A program made the translations under genes and the position numbers. The notes below the pieces were generated by a model. That model searched no databases. It was given only the letters and a program-made list of their open reading frames with translations, and was not told the origin of the DNA. From contig CANQYE010000001.1 of NCBI GenBank assembly GCA_947627995.1, positions 8,889-72,888 of the forward strand: a stretch of DNA of 64,000 bases. The letters are read 5' to 3'. Shown here piece after piece: positions 10,603-61,791 of the stretch. This DNA comes from an uncultured Bacilli bacterium. Lineage in GTDB: Bacteria; Bacillota_I; Bacilli_A; RF39; UBA660. Within the stretch, counting starts at the first letter, position 1. Each line of letters starts with the position of its first letter.

Positions 10603-11040
10603 ATGTTTATGGGTGAGTTTCATCATAATCTTGATGAAAAAAATAGAGTCATTATTCCTGCTAAATTACGTGCAAACCTTGGTGAAAGATTTATTATAAC
10701 TCAAGGACTTGAAGGATGTTTATTTGTTTATCCTTTAAAAGAATGGGATAAAATAACAAAAAAACTTAATGGTTTACCTTTTACCAAAAAAGATGCTCGT
10801 ACATTTTCTAGATTTTTTATTTCTGGAGCCACTGAGTGTATATTTGACAAAATGGGTCGAGTAAATATTCCTTATCCACTTATTAAATATGCGAATTTAA
10901 AAAGAGAACTTATTATTATTGGCGTTAATGATCGTATAGAATTGTGGAGTAAAGAGAGATGGGAAAAATATTTGGATGAAAATTCATCAACATTTGAGAC
11001 AATAGCAGAAAATTTATTTTTAGGTGACGAAGATGCATAA
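10603..11040 (+). CDS. mraZ: Transcriptional regulator MraZ
   Basis: MFMGEFHHNLDEKNRVIIPAKLR is the MraZ start. Two MraZ repeats. The ORF track starts earlier at a GTG. Confidence 0.85.
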   Translation: MFMGEFHHNLDEKNRVIIPAKLRANLGERFIITQGLEGCLFVYPLKEWDKITKKLNGLPFTKKDARTFSRFFISGATECIFDKMGRVNIPYPLIKYANLKRELIIIGVNDRIELWSKERWEKYLDENSSTFETIAENLFLGDEDA

Positions 11041-11953
11041 AAGCGTAATGTTGAATGAAACTATTTCAGCTCTAAACATCAAAGATGATGGAATATATGT
11101 TGATGCTACTTTAGGATATGCAGGTCATAGTAGTGAGATTTTAAAACGATTAAAAAGGGGTCGTTTATTCGCCTTTGATCAAGATGAAGAAGCAAGAAAT
11201 TATTCTTTTGAAAAATTAGCAAAAATAAATTCTCAATTTAAAATATTGCCTTATAATTTTGTAAATATGAAAAAAGCCTTACAAAAAGAAAAAATTGATT
11301 TAATAGACGGAATACTTTTTGATTTAGGTGTATCTAGTCCACAAATCGATAATAAGGAACGAGGATTTAGTTTTATGCAAGATGCACCTTTAGATATGCG
11401 TATGAATAAAAATAATGAAAAATCAGCTTTTGAAGTTATTAATTCATATTCGGAAAAGAAATTATTAGAAATATTTTTTAACTATGGTGAAGAAAGAAAA
11501 AGTAAAATTATAGCTGAAAAAATTATTCAAAAAAGATCTCAAAAAGAAATAAGAACGACGTTAGAATTAGTTGAAATTATTAGAAATAGTGTTGGAGAAA
11601 AATATTTTAACTTATATCATCCTGAAAGAAAAATTTTTCAAGCAATTAGAATTGAAGTAAATGATGAGTTAAACGTTATAAAACAAGTTTTGCCGGATGC
11701 AATATCATTATTAAAAAAAGGTGGAAGAATAGTTATTTTAACCTTTCATTCTTTGGAAGATAGAATAGTCAAACAAATATTTAAAAAATATAGCGATGTT
11801 CCTGAAATAGTAAAAGGATTGCCAGAAATTCCTGAGGAGTATAAGCCTCTTATAAAATTAGTTAATAAAAAGCCAATACTTCCTAGTATTGATGAAATAA
11901 ATAAAAATTCTCGTAGCAAAAGTGCAAAATTGAGAATTGTTGAAAGGATTTAG
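11024..11953 (+). CDS. rsmH: 16S rRNA (cytosine1402-N4)-methyltransferase RsmH
   Basis: DATLGYAGHS SAM motif. Position directly after mraZ. Confidence 0.85.
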   Translation: MTKMHKSVMLNETISALNIKDDGIYVDATLGYAGHSSEILKRLKRGRLFAFDQDEEARNYSFEKLAKINSQFKILPYNFVNMKKALQKEKIDLIDGILFDLGVSSPQIDNKERGFSFMQDAPLDMRMNKNNEKSAFEVINSYSEKKLLEIFFNYGEERKSKIIAEKIIQKRSQKEIRTTLELVEIIRNSVGEKYFNLYHPERKIFQAIRIEVNDELNVIKQVLPDAISLLKKGGRIVILTFHSLEDRIVKQIFKKYSDVPEIVKGLPEIPEEYKPLIKLVNKKPILPSIDEINKNSRSKSAKLRIVERI

Positions 11954-11958
11954 ATAAT

Positions 11959-12258
11959 ATGGTAAAAGCAAAAAAATCAAAAATTTTTAAGGGTGAAAAA
12001 ATAACTTATGTTATCTTATTATTTTTAATTATGCTTGCACCTATAATGATTGTTTTTTCTAAAGCAATGTTATCTAAAACAAATTTTGAGCTTAAAAGAA
12101 TGCAAAGTAAAATAAATGTTCAAGAAGATAAAAATGAAAGCCTTAGCATGAAAATTAATGAATTAGCATCACTTGATAAAATACAATCACTTGCAAAGGA
12201 ATTAGGTTTGTCTTATAATAATAATAATATTAAAGTAATAAATGAAACCAAAAATTAA
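11959..12258 (+). CDS. ftsL: Cell division protein FtsL-like (small bitopic, coiled coil)
   Basis: 99 aa with one TM then a coiled coil. Sits between rsmH and the PBP gene. Confidence 0.5.
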   Translation: MVKAKKSKIFKGEKITYVILLFLIMLAPIMIVFSKAMLSKTNFELKRMQSKINVQEDKNESLSMKINELASLDKIQSLAKELGLSYNNNNIKVINETKN

Positions 12259-12269
12259 GGAAGTGTAGC

Positions 12270-14372
12270 ATGAAAAATAAAAAAAGCACCATTAAAATTA
12301 ATAAATTGTTAATTTTTTGTTTGCTTTTTTTATTTGGTTTAATTATTATTAGAGTATTTTTAGTTGCATATACTGGTATAGTTGATGGTATAAATTTAAA
12401 ACAATTTGCAAAATCTAGAGATACATATAAAAGTACTATAAGAGCAAATAGAGGTAGCATTTATGATATTAATGGAGAAATACTTGCTCAAAATGTCAAT
12501 TCATATAATGTAATTGCTTATTTAGATGAAAAAAGAACAACAGATGAAAATAAGCCACGTCATGTAGTTGATAAAGAAAAGACAGCTGAGGAATTAAGCC
12601 CAATTTTAAATATGGAAAAAGATGCTATCTTAAATCTTTTAAATAAAGATGTTTATCAAGTCGAATTAGGGCCAGGAGGTCGAAATATAACTGAGCTTAT
12701 AAAAGAAAAAGTAGAAAAATTAAATTTACCTGGAATAGATTTTATTAAGAGTGATAAAAGATATTACAAAATGGGTAATTTTGCTTCTTATGTAATAGGA
12801 TATGCAAGAAAAAATGATAATGATCAAATCATTGGACAAATGGGTGTAGAAAAGACATTTAATGATGTTTTAAAGGGAACAGATGGATATTTAGAATATC
12901 AAAGAGATATATTTGGGTATCAAATACCAAATACTCCTTCTATTAGAGAAGAACCGAAAAATGGGAATGATATTTATTTAACTATAGATAATAATATACA
13001 AATTTTATTAGAAAATTCGCTAATAAATTTATATGATAAATCGAGATATACATGGGCAACATTTACAATTGCAGATGCCAAAACAGGTGCAATTGTAGGC
13101 AGTGCCTCTTATCCTAGTTTTGATCCAAATACTTTAGAAGGGATTAATAGCTATTTAAATCCTTTAACTCAGTATGCTTATGAACCTGGTTCTACAATGA
13201 AAACTTTTACCTATATGGCAGCAATGGAAAATGGAGTATATAATGGGGAGAATACTTTTACTAGTGGTGGTATAAGTATAGGAGAAGATAAGGTTACGGA
13301 TTTTAATGAGGTAGGATTTGGAGTTATTAGTTTTGATAAAGGTTTTGCATATTCTTCAAATGTTGGAGCAACTTTACTAGCTCAAAAAATTGGTAGGAAT
13401 AATTTAAAGGAATATTTTAATAGATTAGGTTTTGGTAAAAAAACAGGAATTGAATTGCCGGGTGAAGCGAATGGAACGCTTAATTTTAAATACGATATTG
13501 AATTAGCTACAGCATCTTTTGGGCAAGGTATTACTACAACTCCTATTCAAAATATTCAAGCATTAACGGCTTTAACTAATAATGGGATAATGCTTAAACC
13601 ATACATTGTAGATAAAATTATGGATTCAAATGGGATTACTATTGAAAAAGGAAAACGAACAGAGGTTGCTACAGTTGCATCCAAGGAAACAGTAGCAAAA
13701 ATGTTAGATTTAATGAAAAGCGTGGTCAATGATGGTTTGACATCAGCTAAATATTATCAAACAGAAAATGTAACATTAATTGGAAAAACAGGAACTGCAC
13801 AAATAGCAGATCCAAATGGTGGTTACTTAAAAGGAGATACAAATTATATTAGAAGTTTTGCTGGAATATTTCCTTACAACGATCCAAAGTATATAATTTA
13901 TATTTCTGTAAAACAGCTAAGTGGGTCAGTATCTGTAATGGCTAATGCTGTTAAAGGAGTAGTAGAAGAGGTTGCTAATTACAAAAATATAACAGAAACA
14001 GAAAATGCAATGGATGAAAGTAAAATTATAAAATTAACTACTTATATATCAAAAGATAAAGAAGAAGTTACAAATAATTTGTCTTTATTAAATTTAATAC
14101 CAGTTATAATTGGTGATGGGAATAAAATAGTAGATCAATATCCTAATAAAAATGCAACTCTAGTTTCTGGCAATAAGGTGTTTTTACTAACTGATGGACA
14201 AAACATTACTTTACAGAACATGAATGGCTGGTCAAGAAGTGATATAAAAAATTATTGTTCTCTTACAAAAATTAAATGTATTTTTGAGGGAAAAGGTAAA
14301 GCAAGCGAGATATCTTATCCAGAAGGAACAAATATTAAAGATATTGATGAATTAAAAATATTTTTACAATAA
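12270..14372 (+). CDS. pbpB: Class B penicillin-binding protein (PBP2B/FtsI) with C-terminal PASTA domains
   Basis: N-terminal TM. STMK, SSN and KTGT motifs. About 140 aa of C-terminal PASTA repeats. Confidence 0.85.
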   Translation: MKNKKSTIKINKLLIFCLLFLFGLIIIRVFLVAYTGIVDGINLKQFAKSRDTYKSTIRANRGSIYDINGEILAQNVNSYNVIAYLDEKRTTDENKPRHVVDKEKTAEELSPILNMEKDAILNLLNKDVYQVELGPGGRNITELIKEKVEKLNLPGIDFIKSDKRYYKMGNFASYVIGYARKNDNDQIIGQMGVEKTFNDVLKGTDGYLEYQRDIFGYQIPNTPSIREEPKNGNDIYLTIDNNIQILLENSLINLYDKSRYTWATFTIADAKTGAIVGSASYPSFDPNTLEGINSYLNPLTQYAYEPGSTMKTFTYMAAMENGVYNGENTFTSGGISIGEDKVTDFNEVGFGVISFDKGFAYSSNVGATLLAQKIGRNNLKEYFNRLGFGKKTGIELPGEANGTLNFKYDIELATASFGQGITTTPIQNIQALTALTNNGIMLKPYIVDKIMDSNGITIEKGKRTEVATVASKETVAKMLDLMKSVVNDGLTSAKYYQTENVTLIGKTGTAQIADPNGGYLKGDTNYIRSFAGIFPYNDPKYIIYISVKQLSGSVSVMANAVKGVVEEVANYKNITETENAMDESKIIKLTTYISKDKEEVTNNLSLLNLIPVIIGDGNKIVDQYPNKNATLVSGNKVFLLTDGQNITLQNMNGWSRSDIKNYCSLTKIKCIFEGKGKASEISYPEGTNIKDIDELKIFLQ

Positions 14373-14473
14373 AATGTATTAAAAAAATCAGAATATATTT
14401 CTGTTTTTTTTGTTTGTGTTGTGTTAAATTTACAACTTAATTTAAACGTGTTATACTTATTTCGGTGATTTTT

Positions 14474-15238
14474 ATGTTAAAAATTGAAAATTTAAGTATT
14501 AAAGTCTTAAATAAAGAAATATTAAATAATATAAATTTAACAATAAATGATGGTGAAATCCATGTAATTATGGGGCCTAATGGAATAGGCAAAAGTAGCT
14601 TATGCCATTGTATTATGGGAAATCCAGATTATGTTATTTCTAATGGTAATATTTTTTATGATAAAGAGAATTTAAATCTTCTAGATGTTGCAAAAAGAGC
14701 TAAATTAGGAATATACTATTTATTTCAAAACCCGCCAATGATTGAAGGTGTTACTAATTCAGCTATGATTAGAGCTGCTTTAACCTCCAAAACAGGGGAA
14801 CATATTGATATTTTTAAATTTAATAAAGAACTTAAAGAAGTTGCTAATAAATTAAATTTAGATCCTTCTTTTATACATCGAGAAGTTAATGTTAATATGA
14901 GTGGTGGAGAAAAGAAAAAAAATGAAATGTTGAATCTATGGATGCTTAAACCAAATTTTATAATGTTAGATGAACTAGATTCTGGTTTAGATGTGGATAG
15001 TATTAAAGTTGTTTTAAATAGTTTAAAAGAATATATTAAAAAATATAAAGCTTCTTTATTGATAATTACTCATAATACAAAAATATTTGATTATTTAAAG
15101 CCTGATTATATTCATATACTAAATAATAAAACGATAGTTAAAACTGGTAATATAAATTTAGCTTATGAAATTGAAAAAAATGGTTTTAATGAAATTTCTA
15201 AGTCATTTAAAATAAGCGAGAATAAATCTTATGAATAA
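14474..15238 (+). CDS. sufC: Fe-S cluster assembly ATPase SufC
   Basis: MLKIENLSIKV start. Walker A GPNGIGKSS and an ABC signature. The ORF track starts at an upstream GTG. Confidence 0.8.
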   Translation: MLKIENLSIKVLNKEILNNINLTINDGEIHVIMGPNGIGKSSLCHCIMGNPDYVISNGNIFYDKENLNLLDVAKRAKLGIYYLFQNPPMIEGVTNSAMIRAALTSKTGEHIDIFKFNKELKEVANKLNLDPSFIHREVNVNMSGGEKKKNEMLNLWMLKPNFIMLDELDSGLDVDSIKVVLNSLKEYIKKYKASLLIITHNTKIFDYLKPDYIHILNNKTIVKTGNINLAYEIEKNGFNEISKSFKISENKSYE

Positions 15239-15887
15239 AATAGTAGTAGATAAAGATAAATATTTATCTTTAGATAATAAAAAAGTAATTTTAGATGTTA
15301 GGTTAAATGAACTAGAGCTTAATATTACTGGAAATGTTGTCGTTTATGAAAAATTGACTATTGTTGGCGATTATAATTTAAAAATAAAAGTTAATGAAAA
15401 TAGTAGTTTAGAAATGTATATAATAAATTCTTTATCTTGCGGAAATGAAAATATTATTATTGAAAGTTTAGAAAATAGTAATTTATATTTAGAAGAGAAA
15501 ATACATTTAAAAGATAAATTAAATTATTCTATAGAAAACAATTTAAAATCTTCTAATATAAATAATGAAATTAAAGTTCATGTTGTGACTGAAAATAATG
15601 GAAAGATAAACGCTTGTATTAAATCTAGTGTTTTAAAAGATACTAAGAACAATTTTTTAAATGAGGAAATAAAAGTTTTAACTTTAAATAATGCTAAAAA
15701 TGTTATAAAGCCAGATTTATTAGTTAGCAGTAATGATATTATTGCTAATCATAGTGCAACTATAAGTAACATTAAACTTGGTGATTTATATTATTTACAA
15801 AGTAAGGGCATTAATGAAAAAGAAGCAAAAGAATTATTTAAAAATGGGTTTTTATATAACAAAAAAATAAATGAAGTTATAAATTAG
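15231..15887 (+). CDS. Miniature SufB/SufD-family protein (218 aa)
   Basis: C-terminus IKPDLLVSSNDIIANHSATISNIKLGDLYYLQSKGINEKEAKELFKNGF matches the conserved SufB/D C-terminal region. Overlaps the sufC stop. Confidence 0.55.
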   Translation: MNKIVVDKDKYLSLDNKKVILDVRLNELELNITGNVVVYEKLTIVGDYNLKIKVNENSSLEMYIINSLSCGNENIIIESLENSNLYLEEKIHLKDKLNYSIENNLKSSNINNEIKVHVVTENNGKINACIKSSVLKDTKNNFLNEEIKVLTLNNAKNVIKPDLLVSSNDIIANHSATISNIKLGDLYYLQSKGINEKEAKELFKNGFLYNKKINEVIN

Positions 15888-15899
15888 GGAGGTGATAAT

Positions 15900-17102
15900 T
15901 TGGATTTTACTAGAAAAGATTTTCCAATGTTAAATAGTGATATTATATATTTTGATAATGGAGCTACTACTTTTAAACCAGATTCTGTTATTCAAGCTAT
16001 TAGTGATTATTATAGTAATTATTGTGCAAATGCACATAGAGGAGATTATGATATCTCTTATAAAGTTGATTTAGAATATGAAGGAGCAAGAGATGCTGTA
16101 AAAGAATTTATAAATGCTGCTTCTCGTGATGAAATTATTTTTACATCTGGAGCAACTGAAGGCCTTAATATGATAGCAGATGGTTTTTTTAAAAACATTT
16201 TAGAGATAAATGATGAAATAATTATTAGTGATAGTGAACATGCTTCTAATGTTTTACCATGGTTTCGATTGGCTAAAACTAATGGATGCATTATCAAAAA
16301 GATTCCTTTAGATAAAGATTATAAAGTAACAATCGATGCTTTAAAAAGCGTTATTACACCTCAGACTAAAGTTATATCTCTTGCTCAAGTAACAAATGTT
16401 ATAGGAGATATTAGACCGATAAAAGAAATATGTGAATTTGCTCATCAATTAGGTATTTTTGTTGTTGTTGATGGATCTCAAAGTGTTCCACATATGAAAG
16501 TAAATGTTCAAGATTTAGATTGTGACTTTTTAGTTTTTTCTGGACATAAAATGTGTGGACCGACTGGTATTGGAATTTTATATGGCCAAAAGGAGTTATT
16601 GGAAGAAATGATACCAATAAATTTAGGTGGTGGAATGAATGAGTCTTTTGACACTATTGATTCTGTGATGCTTAAATCACTGCCACATAGGTTGGAAGCT
16701 GGGACTCCTAATATAGCAGGAGCGATTGGTCTTAAAAAAGCTATTGAGTATTTAAATAATCTTAAAATGGATAATATTCATAAATATGAACAAAATTTAA
16801 GAAAATATATGATAGATAGACTTATAAAAATTCCTCACGTTGATATAATTAATTTGAATAGTGAAAGTGGAATAATTACTATAAATGTTGATGGGATTTT
16901 TAGTCAGGATGTTGCTTATTATTTAAATAAATATAATATTTGTGTACGTGCTGGGAATCATTGTGCTAAAATATTAAAACAATCAATAGGTGTTAAAAAT
17001 ACACTTCGAATAAGTTTATATTTTTATAATACATATGAAGAAATTGATAATTTTATCGAGCTTATTTCTGATAAAGAAAAGATATTGAAAGAGATGATAT
17101 AA
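15900..17102 (+). CDS. sufS: Cysteine desulfurase SufS (class II)
   Basis: PLP-Lys in FSGHKMCGPTG. Active-site Cys in RAGNHCA. Confidence 0.85.
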   Translation: MDFTRKDFPMLNSDIIYFDNGATTFKPDSVIQAISDYYSNYCANAHRGDYDISYKVDLEYEGARDAVKEFINAASRDEIIFTSGATEGLNMIADGFFKNILEINDEIIISDSEHASNVLPWFRLAKTNGCIIKKIPLDKDYKVTIDALKSVITPQTKVISLAQVTNVIGDIRPIKEICEFAHQLGIFVVVDGSQSVPHMKVNVQDLDCDFLVFSGHKMCGPTGIGILYGQKELLEEMIPINLGGGMNESFDTIDSVMLKSLPHRLEAGTPNIAGAIGLKKAIEYLNNLKMDNIHKYEQNLRKYMIDRLIKIPHVDIINLNSESGIITINVDGIFSQDVAYYLNKYNICVRAGNHCAKILKQSIGVKNTLRISLYFYNTYEEIDNFIELISDKEKILKEMI

Positions 17103-17539
17103 TGGATGAAAATTTAAGAAGAGAAATCATTTTAGAAAATTATCAGAATCCGATTAATAGAGAGATAATAAAAGATAATAGATATATAAAAGTTAATTCT
17201 AACAATGAATCTTGTATTGATAATATTGATTTATTTATATTAATTGAAAATAATAAAATAAGAGATATAAAATTTGATGGAGAAGCTTGTGCAATAAGTA
17301 CTGCCAGTACGTCTTTAATGATTAAAAGTTTAATAGATAAAAGTTTGGATGAAGTTAAAGATATTTGTGAAAATTTTACAAAAATGATTAATGGTGATAG
17401 TAAATATGAAATATCCGGAGAACTATTATCTTTTAACGAAATTTATAAACAAGCGAATCGAAAGCATTGTGCTATTTTACCTTGGTTAGGTATAAAAAAA
17501 GCAATTGAAGAATATAAAAATCAAAATAACACAGATTAA
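17102..17539 (+). CDS. sufU: Sulfur-acceptor scaffold SufU
   Basis: Three conserved Cys (NESCID, GEACAIS, RKHCAIL). Confidence 0.75.
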   Translation: MDENLRREIILENYQNPINREIIKDNRYIKVNSNNESCIDNIDLFILIENNKIRDIKFDGEACAISTASTSLMIKSLIDKSLDEVKDICENFTKMINGDSKYEISGELLSFNEIYKQANRKHCAILPWLGIKKAIEEYKNQNNTD

Positions 17540-17606
17540 TGTGTTATTTTTTTTATTGAGTTATAATTTAAGTTTATGATATTATTTATTTGTAGAGGTG
17601 TGAAAT

Positions 17607-18302
17607 ATGAAGAAGACAATATTATTATTTATAATAATTAGTTTAGCATTTTTAAGTGTAGTTGGTTGTGCAAATAAAAAAAATCTAATTTCAAAGGATG
17701 CTATAAAATTTAAAGAAGAGTATGAAAGTTTAAATAATACTTCAAATTCAGATGAAAAAGTACATAGAAGTTTATCTATTTCTGAAAATAATCCGTTTGT
17801 TTATTCTAATGCAAAAGAGATTTTAAAAAAAATCGAAAATAAGGAAACTTTTTATATTTATTTTGGTTCATCTTATTGTCCATGGTGCAGAAGCGTTATA
17901 GAAAAAGTAATTGAAGTAGCTAAAAAAAATAATATAAGCACTATTTATTATATTGATATATGGAATGGAGATCATAATGAAATTTTAAGAGATACATACG
18001 AACTTGATGAAAATAATGAAATAAAGTTGGTTTCAAAAGGCGCAGAAGAATATCAAGATCTATTACGTTATTTAAATAACGTATTAGGAGAATATACATT
18101 AACAAGTAAAGATGGCCAAAAAATATTGGTTGGGGAGAAAAGAATCTTTGCTCCGAACTTTATTTATATTAAAGATGGAAAAGCTGTTAAATTAGAAAGT
18201 GGTAATTCAGATAAGCAAACAGATTCCAGAATGGACTTAACTGAAGAAATATTAAAAGACGAAGAAATTAAGTTCAATGAATTTTTTAAAAATGATAATT
18301 AA
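17607..18302 (+). CDS. Thioredoxin-fold lipoprotein (CPWC motif)
   Basis: Lipobox VVGC after a signal peptide. YFGSSYCPWCRSV. Confidence 0.55.
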   Translation: MKKTILLFIIISLAFLSVVGCANKKNLISKDAIKFKEEYESLNNTSNSDEKVHRSLSISENNPFVYSNAKEILKKIENKETFYIYFGSSYCPWCRSVIEKVIEVAKKNNISTIYYIDIWNGDHNEILRDTYELDENNEIKLVSKGAEEYQDLLRYLNNVLGEYTLTSKDGQKILVGEKRIFAPNFIYIKDGKAVKLESGNSDKQTDSRMDLTEEILKDEEIKFNEFFKNDN

Positions 18303-37795: not shown

Positions 37796-38040
37796 TTTTG
37801 CTTTTTTTAATGTTTTAATCCACTCGTTATTTTCAATTTTGAGTAATATAATATAGGAGATGGTAAATCTCTATGAAATTTTTAAAAAGTCTTCTTAGTA
37901 TAAAAACAATAATTAGTTTGCTTTTTAGCATTACAACTTGTATTTTAGCAATTAAAGGGTGCATAAAATCAGAAACTTTTCTTGCTATTATTATGGCTAT
38001 CATTACTTATTATTTTACTCGAAATAATAAAAGTGAGTAA

Positions 38041-40575: not shown

Positions 40576-40652
40576 GTCCTCGTAGCACAACTGGAAAATG
40601 CAGTCGCCTCCTAAGCGACAGATTGGAGGTTCAAATCCTCTCGGGGACGCCA
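40576..40652 (+). tRNA. tRNA-Arg (anticodon CCU), CCA encoded
   Basis: Hand-folded cloverleaf. Acceptor GTCCTCG/CGGGGAC. Anticodon stem GTCGC/GCGAC with loop CTCCTAA. T-arm GGAGG-TTCAAAT-CCTCT. Length 77 nt. Confidence 0.9.
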
Positions 40653-40665
40653 TTTTAGTAATTAT

Positions 40666-40696
40666 AAAACTGATTTAAAAGTCAGTTTTTTATTTT
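40666..40696 (+). terminator. Rho-independent terminator after the tRNA
   Basis: AAAACTGA-8 nt-TCAGTTTT then T-run. Confidence 0.55.
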
Positions 40697-40788
40697 GAAT
40701 ATTAAAAAGAAAAAAATGAGTTTACTAGCCATTATCCATTTTTGTAAACTATAAAATTAAATAAACTGTAAATCGAAAAAAAATTATA

Positions 40789-40817
40789 TTGACATCGGGG
40801 GGGAATATTGTTATCTT
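40789..40817 (+). promoter_or_regulatory. Promoter TTGACA-(17 nt spacer containing G7)-TATCTT, candidate phase-variable
   Basis: TTGACA at 40789-40794. G7 at 40797-40803. Weak -10. Confidence 0.4.
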
Positions 40818-40844
40818 TAATATAGGAAGGAGAATAAGTGGAAA

Positions 40845-41711
40845 ATGAGTGAAAAATTTAAAAAAAGATATTTAATAATCGTAATGATTATGGTATTAGG
40901 TTTTATTATGATGCCTAATGTATTTGCTCTTGAAGGATTCGGTAGTGTTGAAGGATTAACAGGTACATCTAGTGTAGAAAATGAAAATTCTAATAATATA
41001 ACTTTAAAATTCGATGATGTAACACTAAATTGGGCTGCTGCTAATACTGGAATTGGAAGAGATAGAGATGGTTGGTGGTTAGGTGTTAAATTTACTGCAC
41101 CAACTGGTATTAATGAAGAAAATGTAGCAAATGCAAAAATAAAACGAGGCGGAGAGATAAAACCTTTTACTGATGTAAAAGATGGAAATTATTTCTTTAA
41201 TGCTTGGCTTTATGTTGATAATTTAACCGAAGAAAATGTTGGATCTTACGAATTTGACTGGGATGGTGATGGTGAATTTGAGCAAACAATAAACATCAAA
41301 ATATCTAAAGCTAAACTTAATTTAGTACAACCAGAAGGGGTCAAAAAAGTATACATTGAAGGTGATAATGGTAAAGTAGAATTTGCAACTAAAGTATCTA
41401 CTTTAAATGATTTAACTGATTATGAAAAAAAATTGCTTGAAAAAACTATTGCACCTAATGAAAATCGTGAATTTATAGGTTATAAAACAGACGATGGAAA
41501 TGACTTTGACTATACTTCTGGAGAATTAACTGACGGAATAAAATTGATTGCACAATATAAAGAAGTGCCAGTAGCTGTTCCAACAACAGAAGAAAAAGTA
41601 AAAGAAGAAACTAAAAATCCCGAAACTTCAGATGTAAATTTAATTTTATTGTTAGGACTAATCCTAATAAGTGGATGTGGATTAATTTATATAAAAAGAA
41701 AAATTAATTAA
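40845..41711 (+). CDS. Cell-wall-anchored surface protein with NPETS sorting signal
   Basis: Signal peptide. C-terminal KNPETSD + hydrophobic segment + KRKIN. Confidence 0.55.
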   Translation: MSEKFKKRYLIIVMIMVLGFIMMPNVFALEGFGSVEGLTGTSSVENENSNNITLKFDDVTLNWAAANTGIGRDRDGWWLGVKFTAPTGINEENVANAKIKRGGEIKPFTDVKDGNYFFNAWLYVDNLTEENVGSYEFDWDGDGEFEQTINIKISKAKLNLVQPEGVKKVYIEGDNGKVEFATKVSTLNDLTDYEKKLLEKTIAPNENREFIGYKTDDGNDFDYTSGELTDGIKLIAQYKEVPVAVPTTEEKVKEETKNPETSDVNLILLLGLILISGCGLIYIKRKIN

Positions 41712-41730
41712 AAAATAATTATATTATTAA

Positions 41731-41762
41731 AAAGTTCAAAGGTAATATTTGAACTTTTTTTT
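41731..41762 (+). terminator. Rho-independent terminator
   Basis: AAAGTTCAAA-7 nt-TTTGAACTTT then T8. Confidence 0.65.
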
Positions 41763-41827
41763 AATTAGTTAATATATTTTGATTTTTTAAATAATATAAA
41801 TAATCATAGTTAATTGTTTTTTGCTAA

Positions 41828-41856
41828 TTGACAAATATAAGAAATAATTTTAAAAT
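41828..41856 (+). promoter_or_regulatory. Sigma-A-type promoter (TTGACA-17-TAAAAT) of the tad-like operon
   Basis: Consensus -35, 17-bp spacer and 5/6 match at -10, about 30 nt upstream of the tadZ-like ATG. Confidence 0.5.
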
Positions 41857-41887
41857 TATTATATGATAGAGAATGGGAAGGGTTATT

Positions 41888-42658
41888 ATGGCGAAGACAA
41901 ATAGAGGTAAAACTATTGCTGTTTTTTCTGCAAAAGGCGGAGTTGGGAAAACGGTTTTTACTTTAAATTTAGCTGGAATATATAAACAACTTAATAAAAA
42001 AGTTTTAATAATAGATCTTGATTTAACAAATGGGGGTATAGCTTTATCATTGAATAGAAGAGTAGATAGAACAATCTATAATTTATTTGATGATTTAAAT
42101 AATAATCGTTATAAAGAATTTAAAGATTATGTAACAAACTATGAAAAAAATTTAGATTTTATTGCTTGTCCTAAAGATCCAAGAGATGCAAATAAAATTG
42201 ATGCAAAATATATCGATATTATTATCGAGCGAGCTTCGTATTTATATGACGCAGTAATTTTAGATACTTCTCATGTATTAAATGATATTAATTTAGTTGC
42301 TCTTGATAAAGTAGATAAAATTTTATTTTTAGTTACAAATGATCCTTTAGATTTAAAAAATGTTAAGTCTTTAATAAGTATATTTAAAAATTTAGATAAA
42401 ACAAATTATAAAATGATTTTAAATAATTCTTGCAATTTAAATAAAGATTATTTTTCATTATATGATATCAAAAATATTTTAAAAACAAATATTGATTATA
42501 TTTTAACTCAAAATTTTTATATCAAGAACATAGATATATTTCTTCTTAATGGGAAAATATTTATTATGGATAAGAAGATTGCTTCATCCAAAGATTATGG
42601 AGTAATGTTAACTATCGCAACTGATATATTTAAAGAAGGTGATGGAAAAAATGAGTAA
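41888..42658 (+). CDS. ParA/MinD-family ATPase, TadZ/CpaE-like
   Basis: Deviant Walker A AVFSAKGGVGKT. Sits upstream of the CpaF-type ATPase. Confidence 0.6.
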   Translation: MAKTNRGKTIAVFSAKGGVGKTVFTLNLAGIYKQLNKKVLIIDLDLTNGGIALSLNRRVDRTIYNLFDDLNNNRYKEFKDYVTNYEKNLDFIACPKDPRDANKIDAKYIDIIIERASYLYDAVILDTSHVLNDINLVALDKVDKILFLVTNDPLDLKNVKSLISIFKNLDKTNYKMILNNSCNLNKDYFSLYDIKNILKTNIDYILTQNFYIKNIDIFLLNGKIFIMDKKIASSKDYGVMLTIATDIFKEGDGKNE

Positions 42659-43973
42659 GTCTTTAATTGAAGAATTTAATGTTAAAGTAAATAAGCAAAA
42701 ACCTTATATAGTAAATGATTATGATATTTTTCCAGATAAAAATTTATTAGATGAATTACGTAATAAGATAATTGGTAATTTAATTGATAAAGAAATTCCT
42801 AAAGAAAAAATTAATGAGTTTATTGATGATGAAATAAATTTGGCTTTAGAGGGGCATAATTTAACCAATTTAGAAAGAAGTCATATATATAATTTAATTG
42901 ATAATGAAATAAATGGTTTTGGGCCTTTAAATGAAATTTTGAAAGATAATAATGTAACAGAAATAATGGTAAATAGTCCTAAAGAAATTTATATAGAAAC
43001 TGATGGAAAATTAGTTAGAGATGAAAGTATTTCATTTATTAATAATGAACATATTATTAGAACTATTCAAAGGCTTATCTCACCGATGGGTAAAACAATA
43101 AATACTAAAAATCCTATTGTTGACTCAAGGCTAATGGATGGTTCAAGGATTAATGCTGTAATCCCACCATTATCTATTAAAGGTCCAGTATTAACTATTC
43201 GTAAATTTAAGCCTTATTTAAATACAATTGATGATTTAATAAGATCTGGTTCTTTAACACCATATATGGCAAGATTTCTTGAAGCTGCTGTAATTGGTAA
43301 ATTGAACATTATTATTTGTGGTGGATCAGGAAGTGGAAAAACAACTCTTTTAAATATTTTAAGTAGTTTTATAAACGATAATGAAAGAATTATTACTATT
43401 GAAGATGCCGCAGAATTAAAATTAAAACAAAAACATGTATTATCCTTAGAAACACGTCCGAATAATTATGAAAATGAAGGAGAAATTACTATTCGTGATT
43501 TAGTAATCAATTCATTAAGAATGCGACCTGATAGAATTATTGTCGGTGAAGTTCGTGGGAAAGAAGCATTTGATATGATGCAAGCTATGAATACTGGACA
43601 TGATGGGTCAATTACTACTCTTCATGCTAATAGTCCTAAAGATGCTTTAAATAGGTTAGAGACAATGGTTATGATGAGTGATATGGGTCTTCCACTAAAT
43701 GCTGTAAAAGAATATATTTATAATGCAATAGATTTAGTTATAAATGTTGAACGATTAAGTGATGGTAGACGAAAAATAACAAGTATATGTGAAGTTGATA
43801 AAATAGAGGATAATGAAATAAAGTTAAAAGAGATATTTGCTTTTAAAATTAATGGATTATCTTCAAAAAATATGGTTACAGGAGAATATATTTTATATAA
43901 ATTTATTCCAAAAGTTTTTTATAAACTAAAGAAAAGAGGAATTACATCTTTAAGTGATATTTTTGAAAAATAA
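42651..43973 (+). CDS. CpaF/TadA-type (VirB11-like) secretion ATPase
   Basis: NVTEIMVNSPKEIYIE. Walker A GGSGSGKTTLLN. Walker B, His box and Asp box present. Confidence 0.8.
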   Translation: MSKSLIEEFNVKVNKQKPYIVNDYDIFPDKNLLDELRNKIIGNLIDKEIPKEKINEFIDDEINLALEGHNLTNLERSHIYNLIDNEINGFGPLNEILKDNNVTEIMVNSPKEIYIETDGKLVRDESISFINNEHIIRTIQRLISPMGKTINTKNPIVDSRLMDGSRINAVIPPLSIKGPVLTIRKFKPYLNTIDDLIRSGSLTPYMARFLEAAVIGKLNIIICGGSGSGKTTLLNILSSFINDNERIITIEDAAELKLKQKHVLSLETRPNNYENEGEITIRDLVINSLRMRPDRIIVGEVRGKEAFDMMQAMNTGHDGSITTLHANSPKDALNRLETMVMMSDMGLPLNAVKEYIYNAIDLVINVERLSDGRRKITSICEVDKIEDNEIKLKEIFAFKINGLSSKNMVTGEYILYKFIPKVFYKLKKRGITSLSDIFEK

Positions 43974-43987
43974 AAGAAGGTGATTAG

Positions 43988-45010
43988 GTGAAAAATATAA
44001 ATTGGGAATTATTAATTTTTCAAGTTATTATTGCAATAATTATTGTTTTTCTAATCATTTTTTTCATAAAAATAAAATCAAATTTAAAATTAGAAAAAAG
44101 ATTCTCATATTTTAGTTTAAATACATTAAATGAAGAAAAAGAGCTTTCATTCCTAGATTATATTTTTAATAAGTTATGGAAATTTGTTCATAATTATGCA
44201 AAATTTTTAAATCATTTTAAATGTTTTAGAAAATATGGGTTAAAATATGAGAAATACATTCCATCAAAAAATAAATTTAAAATTAATGGTACTGATTATG
44301 TTGTAATAAAATTTATAACTGGATTAATTGTTGTTTTAGTAGCAGTAATATATAATATTATTAATAGAAATAATATTAATTTCCTTATTTATGTTATTTT
44401 ATTTTTATTTAGTTATACAATTGTAGATATTTTACTAGATATAAAATTTAAAAGAAAAATAAAAAATGTAAAAAAAGATTTGTATAAAACTATTATTATC
44501 ATGAATAATTCTTTTAAATCTGGAAAAACAATATTAAAAGCGGTTGATAATGTAAGAAAATCTTTAAAAGGCGATATAGCAGATGAATATAATAAAATTT
44601 ATACAGATTTATGTTATGGACTTTCTATTGAATCAGCATTTCAAAGATTTTATGAGCGAGTTAAAATAGAACAAATAAAATATATTGTTCTTTCAATATC
44701 TATTTTAAATAAAAGTGGGTGCAATATTAATGAGATATTTAATTCAATTGAAAAAAATGATTTAGATGATCAAAAAATTAATAATACAATAAAAACACAA
44801 TTATTATCTAGTAAATTATTTTTTAATTGTGCTTTAAGTTTGCCAATAATTTTAGTAAGCATAATATTTATTATAAATAGAAATTACTTCAATCCTTTTA
44901 TTTTTACAATTGTAGGTGTTTTATTTTTGATCTTATTAATTAGTTTATATTTATTATATATAATTCTAATAAAAAAGATATTCGAGGTTGATATAGATGA
45001 AAGAGTTTAG
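43988..45010 (+). CDS. TadB-like inner-membrane platform protein (T2SS-F domain)
   Basis: GTG start. TM-flanked cytoplasmic domain in GspF-like topology. Position after the ATPase. Confidence 0.55.
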   Translation: MKNINWELLIFQVIIAIIIVFLIIFFIKIKSNLKLEKRFSYFSLNTLNEEKELSFLDYIFNKLWKFVHNYAKFLNHFKCFRKYGLKYEKYIPSKNKFKINGTDYVVIKFITGLIVVLVAVIYNIINRNNINFLIYVILFLFSYTIVDILLDIKFKRKIKNVKKDLYKTIIIMNNSFKSGKTILKAVDNVRKSLKGDIADEYNKIYTDLCYGLSIESAFQRFYERVKIEQIKYIVLSISILNKSGCNINEIFNSIEKNDLDDQKINNTIKTQLLSSKLFFNCALSLPIILVSIIFIINRNYFNPFIFTIVGVLFLILLISLYLLYIILIKKIFEVDIDERV

Positions 45011-45692
45011 TTTTACAAAAAAGATTTATCGAAAAAAAACTATTAATAGAATTAAGAATAAAATTAATTTATTAGGAAATTCTAAATACGATGTTAATAG
45101 TTTTTTAATAGTTCGGCTTATTTTAAGTTTAATTTTATTTTTTATTTTAGTTTTTTCTAAATCATTGATTATTTTGGCACCTATTATATCTATAATATTT
45201 TATTTTGCATATGAATATTTTTTATTAGATATCGCTATAAAAAGAAGAAGGGATTTATTAAATAGAGAAGCGGTATTCTTTTTCGAAGTTTTAAGTACTA
45301 CTTTAAAGACTACAAATAGTTTAAAAAAAGCATTAAGTTTAGTTGTTAAAAATATTAATAATGATTTGTCTTATGAATTTAGTAAAGCTTTAAAAGAAGT
45401 GGAGATTGGGAAAAGTTTTGCTTTGAGCTTAGAGGAAATGCAAAAAAGAATTCCGAGTGAAGAAATTAATAATTTAATTTTAAATATTTGTGAGGCAATG
45501 CGTTCCGGTAATGATATAGAAAATACTTTAAATATTGAAATAAATTCATTAAGAGAAAAAAGATTTTTAATTATTAAAAATAAACTATCAAAAATACCAT
45601 TAAAAGTTTTGATTTTAACTATTATTTTAATTGGTCCAATAATTGCCATAATTTTTTATGGGCCTACAATAATTGATTATATATTAAGTTGA
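44997..45692 (+). CDS. TadC-like inner-membrane platform protein (T2SS-F domain)
   Basis: Same architecture as the previous ORF. Overlapping start. Confidence 0.5.
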   Translation: MKEFSFTKKIYRKKTINRIKNKINLLGNSKYDVNSFLIVRLILSLILFFILVFSKSLIILAPIISIIFYFAYEYFLLDIAIKRRRDLLNREAVFFFEVLSTTLKTTNSLKKALSLVVKNINNDLSYEFSKALKEVEIGKSFALSLEEMQKRIPSEEINNLILNICEAMRSGNDIENTLNIEINSLREKRFLIIKNKLSKIPLKVLILTIILIGPIIAIIFYGPTIIDYILS

Positions 45693-46108
45693 TTTTCTTA
45701 ATTGAATCATATATAATTAGTGTAGATATTAAGGAGGAGTTTATGAAGTATTGTTCAAATTGCGGTAAAGAGTTAAAAGAAGGTGCAGATGTATGTTTAA
45801 ATTGTGGTAAAGCAATAAAAAAAATTCCTTCAACTACTGCAAATAATACAAAAAATGCAAAATCAAAAGTGACTGCGGGGATTTTAGCAATATTTTTTGG
45901 AGCATATGGAGTACATAATTTTTATTTAGGTTATACTGGAAAGGCTGTTGCTCAACTAATTCTAACAATTATCGGTTTTATTACATTTATTTTAATTATT
46001 GGAATTTTTTTGGTATTAGCAAGCTCTATTTGGGCATTTGTTGAAGCAATATTATTATTTACTGGTAGCATAAAAGTTGATGGGTATGGGAATAATTTAG
46101 GTGATTAA
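45689..46108 (+). CDS. Zinc-ribbon + TM2-domain membrane protein
   Basis: CSNCGKELKEGADVCLNCG. TM2-like GILAIFFGAYGVHNFYLGYTGKA. Confidence 0.5.
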   Translation: MIFLIESYIISVDIKEEFMKYCSNCGKELKEGADVCLNCGKAIKKIPSTTANNTKNAKSKVTAGILAIFFGAYGVHNFYLGYTGKAVAQLILTIIGFITFILIIGIFLVLASSIWAFVEAILLFTGSIKVDGYGNNLGD

Positions 46109-46109
46109 T

Positions 46110-46646
46110 ATGAATATAAATACAATTACAGAAAAAATGGATAAAGCAATTACTAATTTAGAAAATAAATTTTTAAATATTAGAGCTGGTAGAGCAAATC
46201 CTGCTATGTTAAATGGAATAATGGTAGAGTATTATGGTAATCCTACACCAATTCAATCGGTTGCTAATATTTCTGTGCCTGAAGCAAAACAAATTTTAAT
46301 TAAACCTTTTGATAAAGGGGTATTGAAAGATATTGAAAGATCTATCAATGAAGCTAATTTAGGGATTAGCCCTGTTAATAATGGTGAAATGATTATATTA
46401 GCAATTCCTGATTTAACTGAAGAAAAAAGAAAAGACTATGTTAAAATGGCTAAGTCTTGTGCTGAAGAAGCTAAAATAGCATTACGTAATATCAGACAAG
46501 ATGCAAATAATGATATTAAGAAAGAAGCATTGCCAGAAGATGAAGAAAAAAAAGAACTTGAAAATATTCAAGAATTAATAACTAAATATAATAAAATTGT
46601 TGATGAAAAGTTAAAAGAAAAAGAAAACGAATTAATGCAATTTTAA
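46110..46646 (+). CDS. frr: Ribosome recycling factor
   Basis: VRAGRANPAMLNGIMVEYYG. The ORF track starts 9 nt earlier at a GTG. Confidence 0.85.
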   Translation: MNINTITEKMDKAITNLENKFLNIRAGRANPAMLNGIMVEYYGNPTPIQSVANISVPEAKQILIKPFDKGVLKDIERSINEANLGISPVNNGEMIILAIPDLTEEKRKDYVKMAKSCAEEAKIALRNIRQDANNDIKKEALPEDEEKKELENIQELITKYNKIVDEKLKEKENELMQF

Positions 46647-46647
46647 A

Positions 46648-46677
46648 AAATCACTTAAAATTATAGTGATTTTTTTA
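46648..46677. terminator. Bidirectional terminator between convergent frr and the cysteine desulfurase gene
   Basis: A-run, AAATCACT-9 nt-AGTGATTT, T-run. Confidence 0.6.
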
Positions 46678-55960: not shown

Positions 55961-56560
55961 ATGAAAATTAAAAGATTGTTAGTTTTAATGATTATTATTG
56001 CTTTTATCTCAACTTTTAATATTTTTGTTTCACATAGCTATCTAACAACTATAATTAGTGGAACTGGTAATAATAATAAATTAACGACTAAAAGTGATTT
56101 TAATATAAGTTTTAATACAACTGATAATATATCAATGACTGATTCACCATTAATTTTGGATACAAAAAGAAAAAATTACGATAATATTACTAAGTTTGAT
56201 ATTGAGCTTAGTGATACGACGATTTCATCAGCTAAATTTAGTATATATTTAAATGAACTAACTTTAACTAATAATTATTTATCTAAATATGTTAAGTGGG
56301 AATTAGTTCCAATTTCTAATGGAGTTGAACAAACTGCTATAGCAAGTGGTAATTTTGCCAATTGTAATACATGCTCAGGCGGCAAATTAGTATTAAAATC
56401 AGATTTAACAATTTCTAAAGGATCAACTTTATCTTACGGCGTTCGAATTTGGCTAAGTGAGGATTCTTCAGCTAATACACTTACTAATAATCAAAACTCA
56501 CTAATGAATGGTTCATTAAGTGCTAAAGTTGGAATAGAAGCCCAATTTACTAAAAATTAG
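55961..56560 (+). CDS. Secreted hypothetical protein (signal peptide)
   Basis: N-terminal signal sequence. S/T/N-rich. Confidence 0.35.
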   Translation: MKIKRLLVLMIIIAFISTFNIFVSHSYLTTIISGTGNNNKLTTKSDFNISFNTTDNISMTDSPLILDTKRKNYDNITKFDIELSDTTISSAKFSIYLNELTLTNNYLSKYVKWELVPISNGVEQTAIASGNFANCNTCSGGKLVLKSDLTISKGSTLSYGVRIWLSEDSSANTLTNNQNSLMNGSLSAKVGIEAQFTKN

Positions 56561-60370: not shown

Positions 60371-60619
60371 GTGGTTGTAATGCATATTGCAAGTAATATC
60401 AAATCTTTTTTATATGATGAAGATTATTTTGTGACGTATTATAAAAATAATGTTTATGTCTATAATTATCAAAAGTTAAATATTTTTACTAATAATGTTA
60501 TAGAGTTATTAATGGATAATTTCTCTTTAATTATAAAAGGGTCTAATTTAAAAATAATTAAAATGGAGTCCAAAGAAATTATGATTAGTGGAAAAATAGA
60601 AAGTATAGGTTTAAAATGA
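60371..60619 (+). CDS. yqfC: YqfC/YabP-family sporulation protein
   Basis: Beta-rich pattern NLKIIKMESKEIMISGKIESIG typical of YabP/YqfC. Followed by a YqfD-like gene. Confidence 0.5.
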   Translation: MVVMHIASNIKSFLYDEDYFVTYYKNNVYVYNYQKLNIFTNNVIELLMDNFSLIIKGSNLKIIKMESKEIMISGKIESIGLK

Positions 60620-61791
60620 AAAATATTATTGATGAAAATAAAAAACATTATGTTACTATAAATATAAAAGGGAAAAATTTAAAAAATTTAATTTTAAATT
60701 TAGTTAATAAAAATATTCCACTAAAAAAAATTAATGAGGATAAAGATGAATTAACATTAACAATATTAGAAAATGATTATAAAAATATAAAAAAAGATTA
60801 TAAAAATTATAAAATTAGAAAAATAAATGATGTTGGAATTTATAAGATAAAAGATTTCTTCAATAAATATAATCTTTTTATTTTAATGATTGTTTTAGGA
60901 TTAATATTATTATTTTTTTTATCTAATATTATTATTAGTGTTAAAGTTATTCATAATGATAAATATTTAAGAAATTTAGTTTTAAATGAATTAGAAGATT
61001 CAGGCATTAAAAAATTTAGTTTTAAAAAAAATTATGATGAAATAAATAAAATAAAAAATCGTATTATTAATAAGTATCCAGATAATATTGAATGGTTAGA
61101 AATAGAAATAAAAGGAATGAAAGTTATTGTACATTTAGAAGAAAGAATTCTTAATAAGAATTCTTCTAAAGAAAATGATTGTGATATTGTAGCAAAAAAA
61201 GATGCTATAATTACAAAAATAACTGCTTCTAAAGGAGAGATAAAAAAGGATGAATTTGATTTTGTAAAAGCTGGCGATGTTATAATTACAGGTAATATTG
61301 CTGTAAATGAAGAAACTAAAAAATTATTATGTGCAAAAGGAAAAGTTTATGGAGAAGTATGGTATAGCGCAAAAATTTCTTTACCATTAAATTATTATAA
61401 AAAGGTTTATACTGGCAAAAAAAGAATGAATATTGGAATTGGGATTAAAAAGCCTAAGTCAATTTTTAAAATAAAATATGATAATTATGATATTAAAAGA
61501 AAAAAAATCTTTAATTTATTTAATTGGAAAATTTATTCAGAAGAAATAAAAGAAGTGAAATTACAAAAAGAAAAATATACCGAAAAAGAGGCAATGGAGA
61601 AAGTAATTGCAATAATACTTGAAAAATTTGATATTAAATTATCTAATGGTGAATATATTATTTCTCAAAAAGTTTTGAAAAAAGAAATAATTAATAGTAC
61701 AATAAATGTAGAAGTGTTTATAGCAGTTAATGAAAGAATTGATTCATTAGCTTATATTCAAAAAGAAAAAGAGGAAAAAAAGATTGAATAA
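60616..61791 (+). CDS. yqfD: YqfD-like stage IV sporulation membrane protein
   Basis: 391 aa with a single TM near residue 95. Position yqfC-yqfD-...-ybeY-dgkA as in Bacillus. Confidence 0.5.
   Translation: MKNIIDENKKHYVTINIKGKNLKNLILNLVNKNIPLKKINEDKDELTLTILENDYKNIKKDYKNYKIRKINDVGIYKIKDFFNKYNLFILMIVLGLILLFFLSNIIISVKVIHNDKYLRNLVLNELEDSGIKKFSFKKNYDEINKIKNRIINKYPDNIEWLEIEIKGMKVIVHLEERILNKNSSKENDCDIVAKKDAIITKITASKGEIKKDEFDFVKAGDVIITGNIAVNEETKKLLCAKGKVYGEVWYSAKISLPLNYYKKVYTGKKRMNIGIGIKKPKSIFKIKYDNYDIKRKKIFNLFNWKIYSEEIKEVKLQKEKYTEKEAMEKVIAIILEKFDIKLSNGEYIISQKVLKKEIINSTINVEVFIAVNERIDSLAYIQKEKEEKKIE

Follow-up and report, generated by a model that had tools for sequence, protein, structure and literature searches.

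A tadZ-tadA-tadB-tadC operon without adjacent pilin genes in an uncultured Bacilli bacterium

The 64-kb stretch of DNA analyzed here (the window) corresponds to positions 23,630-87,629 of the 184,983-bp metagenomic contig ENA ERZ27249276 NODE_5 and comes from an uncultured member of the Bacilli whose very AT-rich genome has a GC content of about 24% throughout. It carries, in the order tadZ-tadA-tadB-tadC, the ATPase and membrane-platform genes of a Tad system. Tad pili are organelles of adhesion and colonisation. The four genes are intact and under purifying selection, and orthologous loci occur throughout a clade of related gut bacteria in which the pseudopilin genes tadE and tadE2 precede tadZ. 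In the window both genes are gone from in front of tadZ, and this is the real anomaly of the locus, one that is invisible from the window alone.

The four core genes and their promoter

Of the features by which a Tad system is recognized, the locus has an ATPase gene at the TadZ position before tadA, a CpaF/TadA ATPase, and separate TadB and TadC proteins (Table 1), but no Flp or TadE/F gene. The best solved homologues of TadA are the Caulobacter CpaF structures (6e-103), and its Walker A motif (GGSGSGKTT), Asp box, Walker B motif and His box are all legible in the sequence; its score against TIGR03819, 312.7 bits, lies under the equivalog cut-off of 373. The protein at the TadZ position consists of a single domain, without the receiver-like domain found at the N-terminus of classical TadZ. 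Among solved structures MinD is its best homologue (1.6e-16), and no chain named TadZ matched it at E <= 0.001; with the product of the gene just before tadA in all relatives it shares 45-60% identity.

The genes are tightly packed, with overlaps of 8 nt between tadZ and tadA and of 14 nt between tadB and tadC, and a gap of 14 nt between tadA and tadB. All four open reading frames (ORFs) are full length, and they form one operon behind a near-consensus promoter of their own, which was unbeaten by any other + strand site in a 9-kb scan. A strong, though AT-rich, intrinsic terminator separates this operon from the gene upstream. Public gene callers start tadZ at 41888, tadA at 42651 and the zinc-ribbon/TM2 gene downstream at 45743, vs 41873, 42639 and 45689 for the longest ORFs; the called start of tadA is an ATG, whereas the longest ORF begins with GTG. 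A preliminary description of the window had proposed a Tad-type core, a TadA with every secretion-ATPase box, a single self-promoted operon, a strong terminator upstream of it, and the tRNA, surface-protein, zinc-ribbon/TM2 and frr genes as its neighbours, and all of this is borne out by the Pfam and TIGR matches, the orthologues in relatives, the gene packing and the signal sequences listed in Table 1.

Table 1. Genes and signals at the tad locus, in window coordinates
Feature	Position	Strand	Evidence and remarks
tRNA-Arg(CCU), anticodon CCT	40576..40652	+	ARAGORN; neighbour, outside the system
Promoter-like site of the surface-protein gene, TTGACA-17-TATCTT	40789..40817	+	10/12 positions, TG extension; G7 tract 40797-40803 in spacer
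Secreted surface protein gene, 288 aa	40845..41711	+	Sec signal peptide; C-terminal NPETS, hydrophobic stretch, KRK tail
Intrinsic terminator, 12-bp stem and T8	41729..41762	+	-11.1 kcal/mol, z = -4.81; 0/200 shuffles fold equally well
Sigma-70-type promoter of the tad operon, TTGACA-17-TAAAAT	41828..41856	+	Matches 11/12 positions
TadZ-position gene, MinD/ParA-like ATPase, 256 aa	41888..42658	+	AAA_31 5.5e-16, CbiA, ParA; KGGVGKT
tadA/cpaF, secretion ATPase, 440 aa	42651..43973	+	T2SSE 2.8e-59; TIGR03819 3e-93
tadB, GspF-domain inner-membrane platform protein, 340 aa	43988..45010	+	T2SSF 4.9e-07, one domain
tadC, second GspF-domain platform protein, 231 aa	44997..45692	+	T2SSF 4.8e-16, one domain
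Zinc-ribbon and TM2-domain membrane protein, 121 aa	45743..46108	+	TM2 4.8e-14, Zn_Ribbon_1 6e-07
frr, ribosome recycling factor	46110..46646	+	RRF 1.2e-57; housekeeping; starts 1 nt past the zinc-ribbon/TM2 stop
Hairpin and T-run, first terminator-like one downstream of the operon	46645..46676	+	-8.9 kcal/mol, z = -2.5

The module in related Bacilli and the search for pilin genes

TadA of the window has thousands of close homologues at 60-72% identity, among them proteins from more than 70 related gut Bacilli; their sources are metagenome-assembled genomes of uncultured gut 'Bacilli bacterium', Clostridium sp. CAG:302 and CAG:762, Candidatus Ventrenecus and similar organisms. The module is clade-wide, with 543 confirmed loci in species-representative genomes. 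Genes upstream of tadZ were counted in the 69 such loci with at least 1.3 kb of upstream sequence. All 69 carry tadE and tadE2 about 720 and 400 nt before tadZ, with the N-terminal motifs NKGQALVEF in TadE, which gives a Pfam TadE match, and NNKGQ[ST]LV.F in TadE2. A canonical flp gene (KGQALVEY, 63-79 aa) lies in the locus in 10 of the 69, including those of the window's nearest relatives. Since pseudopilin genes, and in some loci a pilin gene, precede tadZ in the relatives, the module in this clade is a genuine Tad pilus locus of the Gram-positive kind, arranged as (flp)-tadE-tadE2-tadZ-tadA-tadB-tadC. The PilD peptidase is encoded within 10 kb of only one of the 69 loci, so that the window, in lacking it, conforms to its clade and does not show the peculiarity first supposed; a missing peptidase gene is known for Gram-positive Tad systems as well.

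The other 59 loci begin with tadE-tadE2, and no flp was recognizable in the flanking sequence retrieved with them; most of the clade either encodes its major pilin at an unlinked site or uses the TadE-like protein of 110-120 aa as its main subunit. In one locus (L045 8480-9213) tadE looks frameshifted, with two overlapping ORFs that both match the TadE profile. In the relative L004 a second type IV filament set (13966-17751), comprising a 575-aa PilC, a PilD A24 peptidase and a PilB/PilT-like ATPase, is encoded within 1 kb past the tad operon, which shows that Tad systems of this clade can have a shared peptidase at hand. The neighbourhoods of the module vary by genus, with ruvAB, sepF/divIVA or such a pilC/pilD set alongside, and we read this variation as genome rearrangement rather than mobility.

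Apart from the window, tadE and tadE2 are missing only from L092, the locus of the closest relative that belongs to another species (76% identity in TadA, 80% in TadZ). There an unrelated gene and a terminator are followed by a TTGACA-17-TAAAAT promoter, a GGAAGGG ribosome-binding site and tadZ, the promoter hexamers, their spacing and the ribosome-binding site being those of the window. The layout and promoter common to the two loci indicate that the pilin-less, self-promoted operon predates the split of the two species. An apparent second-closest TadA (P0003, L091 3740-6067) was set aside as uninformative, being a 775-aa tandem double CpaF in an unrelated context. This fused double secretion ATPase is encoded on a JGI metagenome contig beside a STAND/PD40 protein and is unrelated to the window organism.

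The missing genes were sought both in the 64-kb window and in a longer sequence of 93,264 bp stitched together from its contig; this extends 51 kb to the upstream side of the operon and 38 kb to the downstream side, and was obtained by looking up the proteins at the window ends and then a flanking GH25 protein. Relatives' Flp, TadE, TadE2, PilD, PilC and PilT served as tblastn queries, and clade-specific profile hidden Markov models (HMMs) were built from 12 Flp, 73 TadE and 66 TadE2 sequences of related loci; positive controls gave E-values of 1e-38 to 1e-49. No Flp prepilin was found in the 64 or the 93 kb by tblastn, phmmer, the clade HMM or a regular expression for class-III leaders. TadE and TadE2 pseudopilins were likewise not found in the 93 kb, where the best HMM hit (E-value 0.0015) fell on a membrane anchor that is not a pilin, and tblastn with a relative's PilD revealed no homologue of the A24 prepilin peptidase in the same 93 kb. 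The lack of pilin and peptidase genes that the preliminary description had noted for the window consequently extends to the sequence just outside it, where their presence would have made this an ordinary tad locus.

Three candidates were rejected. The ORF at 37873-38040 (55 aa), picked up by a loose G-x4-E expression, has a hydrophobic N-terminus with no short charged leader, is not called by public gene callers and has no HMM match. The ORF at 11959-12258, which gave the best weak TadE match, was judged a mere membrane anchor. It sits between the ORF at 11024-11953, which matches a PF01795 methyltransferase gene called at the same position in L096, and a 700-aa ORF (12270-14372) that we take to be a penicillin-binding protein; by its position it is presumably FtsL. 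A 110-aa protein encoded after spoIIP (L093 16683-17015) reached E = 0.007 with the TadE2 HMM and lacks the G-Q-x-L-V motif.

Selection, flanking genes and descent

Between the window and L092, dN/dS is 0.10 for tadZ, 0.15 for tadA and 0.25 for the available N-terminal part of tadB, at a dS of about 1. Clade-invariant columns were defined as those at least 95% conserved in 74-78 relatives (78 for TadA); TadA retains 180 of 188 such residues, the eight changes all being conservative, and TadZ retains 42 of 45. Full-length ORFs, low dN/dS and the conservation of residues in TadA and TadZ together favour a functional core over a decaying one.

The genes on either side are not regarded as parts of the Tad system. 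Upstream, the 288-aa surface-protein gene is a transcription unit of its own, outside the tad operon; its product has no Pfam match and a weak LPXTG-tail match to NF053819, and no homologue of it was found among the related tad loci examined. The guanine tract in the spacer of its promoter is G7 in the window and in the metagenomic contigs L001 and L003 and G8 in L002; no other indel occurs in this DNA, which is 99.87% identical over 9.1 kb. The difference in tract length between samples agrees with an earlier suggestion that the surface gene is phase variable and fits slipped-strand variation of promoter strength, homopolymer assembly error being also possible.

Downstream, the zinc-ribbon/TM2 gene lies 50 nt after tadC and 1 nt before frr. 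It follows tadC in no relative, and elsewhere in related loci just two weak zinc-ribbon matches were seen; without any such association with tad genes its product is not counted as a conserved Tad component. No terminator was found between tadC and frr, and the first hairpin is that at 46645-46676, likely the end of a tadZABC-ZnR/TM2-frr transcription unit, so that transcription probably runs through the zinc-ribbon/TM2 gene, which is probably co-transcribed with the tad operon, into frr. The essential translation-factor gene frr would thereby probably share a transcript with a pilus operon. The zinc-ribbon/TM2 gene could also be driven independently, from promoter-like sites at 45643-45670 and 45689-45717.

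Farther away, the sporulation genes yabP and yqfD occur in the window (60371-61791), and the flanks (L096 4886-6625; L099 5965-7755) carry spoVAC/AD/AE, gpr (Peptidase_A25) and spoIIP. To judge by this gene content, the small-genome, 24% GC bacterium may be an endospore former. Its relatives are often labelled Tenericutes or Mollicutes. The window also encodes (55961-56560) a 199-aa secreted protein without Pfam match, whose N-terminus, MKIKRLLVLMIIIAFISTFNIFVSHSYLTTIISGTG, to our eye resembles signal peptides of the TasA/camelysin type.

The operon had initially been seen as inserted downstream of the tRNA gene, in an accessory-like position, and acquisition of the locus as a horizontally transferred island integrated at tRNA-Arg(CCU) has some circumstantial appeal. 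It starts about 1.2 kb downstream of that tRNA, the module occupies differing genomic neighbourhoods across genera, and transfer of Tad loci from one bacterium to another is frequent (PMC6668835). The marks of a tRNA-integrated island are nonetheless lacking: there is no att-like (attL/attR) direct repeat of the tRNA 3' end downstream, the gene tables list neither an integrase nor a transposase, and the composition is not deviant, the operon having 22.0% GC vs 24.0% for the surrounding 93 kb. In 33 related loci the tRNA-Arg(CCT) gene never adjoins the tad operon (L041 has the tRNA about 9 kb off, on the opposite strand), and the 3.4-kb contig of L092, where the same junction of promoter and tadZ comes after an unrelated gene, carries no tRNA. 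All of the closest homologues belong to the same clade of Bacilli, and the divergence of TadA from that of the relative L007 (72% identity) is in line with that of the housekeeping protein LepA (79%), a pattern that fits vertical descent of this clade-wide module. The island is on these grounds very improbable, and the accessory-like placement is not upheld.

Interpretation and comparison with known systems

The explanation we favour, with a probability of roughly 0.6, is that the locus encodes an ordinary, vertically inherited Tad motor and platform that still work, their pilins and peptidase being supplied in trans. The MinD-like ATPase at the TadZ position would scaffold or position the machine, a CpaF/TadA hexamer would hydrolyse ATP as its motor, and TadB and TadC would form the platform at which processed pilins are lifted from the membrane and added to a growing fibre. 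The lineage would have lost tadE, tadE2 and flp from in front of tadZ, leaving four core genes that would now be read from their own sigma-70 promoter, probably on into the small membrane-protein gene and frr; the Flp-type pilin, the TadE-like minor pilins and a PilD/ComC-type peptidase would be supplied from elsewhere in the genome, and a pilus would presumably still be assembled. Partners in trans are plausible because flp stands in the locus in so few relatives and PilD so rarely stands near it. The missing peptidase is not disqualifying, since the Tad model of MacSyFinder permits tadV as a 'loner' gene (PMC6668835), tadV is always outside the tad locus in Bifidobacterium (PMC13091076), and the peptidase is near a single related locus here.

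Several observations weigh against this explanation. Scattered Tad loci have been described as very rare (PMC6668835), although they are a recognised possibility all the same. Neither pilin nor peptidase genes lie in the 93 kb, and their supply from the rest of the genome is an assumption. The pilin genes were not left behind at the lepA-hemN site, which in L007 is the site of the tad genes and is followed by flp and tadE; in the window species, where the contig was walked through the GH25 protein, hemN is followed by genes for a 152-aa protein, RadC, MreC and a 136-aa membrane protein that is probably MreD, with no pilins among them. The platform proteins are also divergent. TadB departs from the clade at 10 of 42 invariant columns (24%) and TadC at 14 of 38 (37%), against a median of 0 in relatives, which makes the window the top outlier for both apart from one misaligned sequence, and at equal TadA identity the TadB and TadC identities lie 5-10 points below those of other pairs. 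This signal is modest, and it could reflect relaxed constraint rather than adaptation to relocated pilins. A relative-rate comparison showed no acceleration specific to the window in TadZ or the TadB N-terminus, L092 being the faster of the two in TadA, and the divergence of TadB and TadC can therefore be dated neither before nor after the split from L092; the one invariant site open to comparison, TadB G142, is still G in L092 but S in the window.

One alternative is an orphan relic, in which the pilin and pseudopilin genes were deleted rather than moved and the four remaining genes, left without a substrate, persist through the recency of that deletion or through their position upstream of the essential frr in the same unit. 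The absence of tadE and tadE2 here, when they are present in every one of the 69 relatives, the failure to find any pilin gene in 93 kb, the outlying TadB and TadC residues and the lack of a terminator between tadC and frr are all compatible with decay of this kind. The state of the genes argues otherwise: all four ORFs are full length, two species with the same pilin-less layout and promoter show dN/dS of 0.10-0.25 at a dS of about 1, and the changes at invariant sites of TadA are without exception conservative. Unused genes, moreover, would not be expected to stay intact in a small, streamlined genome. A relic consequently appears unlikely.

Still harder to credit is a repurposed motor, in which the TadZ/A/B/C core would handle a substrate that is not a pilin, or else pilins of the Com or type IVa type (KGFTLIE class) whose genes lie elsewhere. 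It could account for the selective divergence of the substrate-contacting platform proteins, which the ATPase and TadZ do not share, and type IV-type pilin genes do lie near the tad loci of L015 and L057, as does the PilC/PilD/PilT set of L004. No candidate substrate gene, however, is found in or beside the operon: the 288-aa protein has a Sec signal, a tail resembling a cell-wall-sorting signal, and its own promoter and terminator, and the zinc-ribbon/TM2 protein has no class-III leader. We know of no precedent for a Tad core that handles non-Flp substrates. Comparably doubtful is the broader proposition that the two-species lineage has lost all Flp/TadE-type pilins genome-wide and that the motor, still under purifying selection, was recruited to another substrate or role, with the divergence of TadB and TadC as the footprint of that change.

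The machine itself is unsurprising; the uncoupling of motor and pilin genes and the divergence of the platform are what is noteworthy. The Gram-positive Tad module is conserved across a large clade of uncultured gut Bacilli, and one lineage within this clade has uncoupled the motor from the pilin genes, which amounts to a small natural experiment in the evolution of platform proteins when pilin genes move or vanish. There is also a bearing on annotation, in that detectors based on loci would score such a system as incomplete. The Tad pili of uncultured gut clades with reduced genomes have recently come into focus, a pilin of TANB77 having been linked to the response to immunotherapy (PMC11680825).

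Among characterized systems, the Cpa system of Caulobacter crescentus and the Tad system of Aggregatibacter actinomycetemcomitans resemble the locus in the CpaF match noted above, the split TadB/TadC platform and an ATPase of the ParA/MinD family. The window differs from both in the bare MinD-like domain at the TadZ position and in having no flp, tadE/F or tadV in the locus. The secretin RcpA/CpaC, TadD, TadG and CpaB were likewise not seen in the locus, which is in keeping with a monoderm, the secretin and TadD not having been directly searched for; RcpA/CpaC and TadD are specific to diderms and unexpected in monoderm Bacilli (PMC6668835). The loci of the related gut Bacilli share gene order and sizes with the window, usually have no peptidase gene in the locus, and have orthologous core genes (TadA 60-72%, TadZ 45-60%, TadB 31-41% and TadC 38-48% identity); where they carry tadE and tadE2 in front of tadZ, a terminator and a dedicated promoter stand instead in the window species and in L092. 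The genus-wide T4cP locus of Bifidobacterium, exemplified by tad2003 of B. breve UCC2003, is alike in its monoderm setting, its tadZ-tadA-tadB-tadC core block, the lack of a secretin, and a peptidase gene, tadV, that stands apart from the locus or, in some species, cannot be detected (PMC13091076). It differs in that a flp-tadE-tadF cluster accompanies the core there, whereas here no pilin or pseudopilin gene lies within the 51 kb upstream and 38 kb downstream, and Bifidobacterium is an actinobacterium, whereas the window organism is a Bacilli member of roughly 24% GC with sporulation genes. Set beside these systems, the locus represents no new class but a known Tad machine with an unusual, derived gene arrangement.

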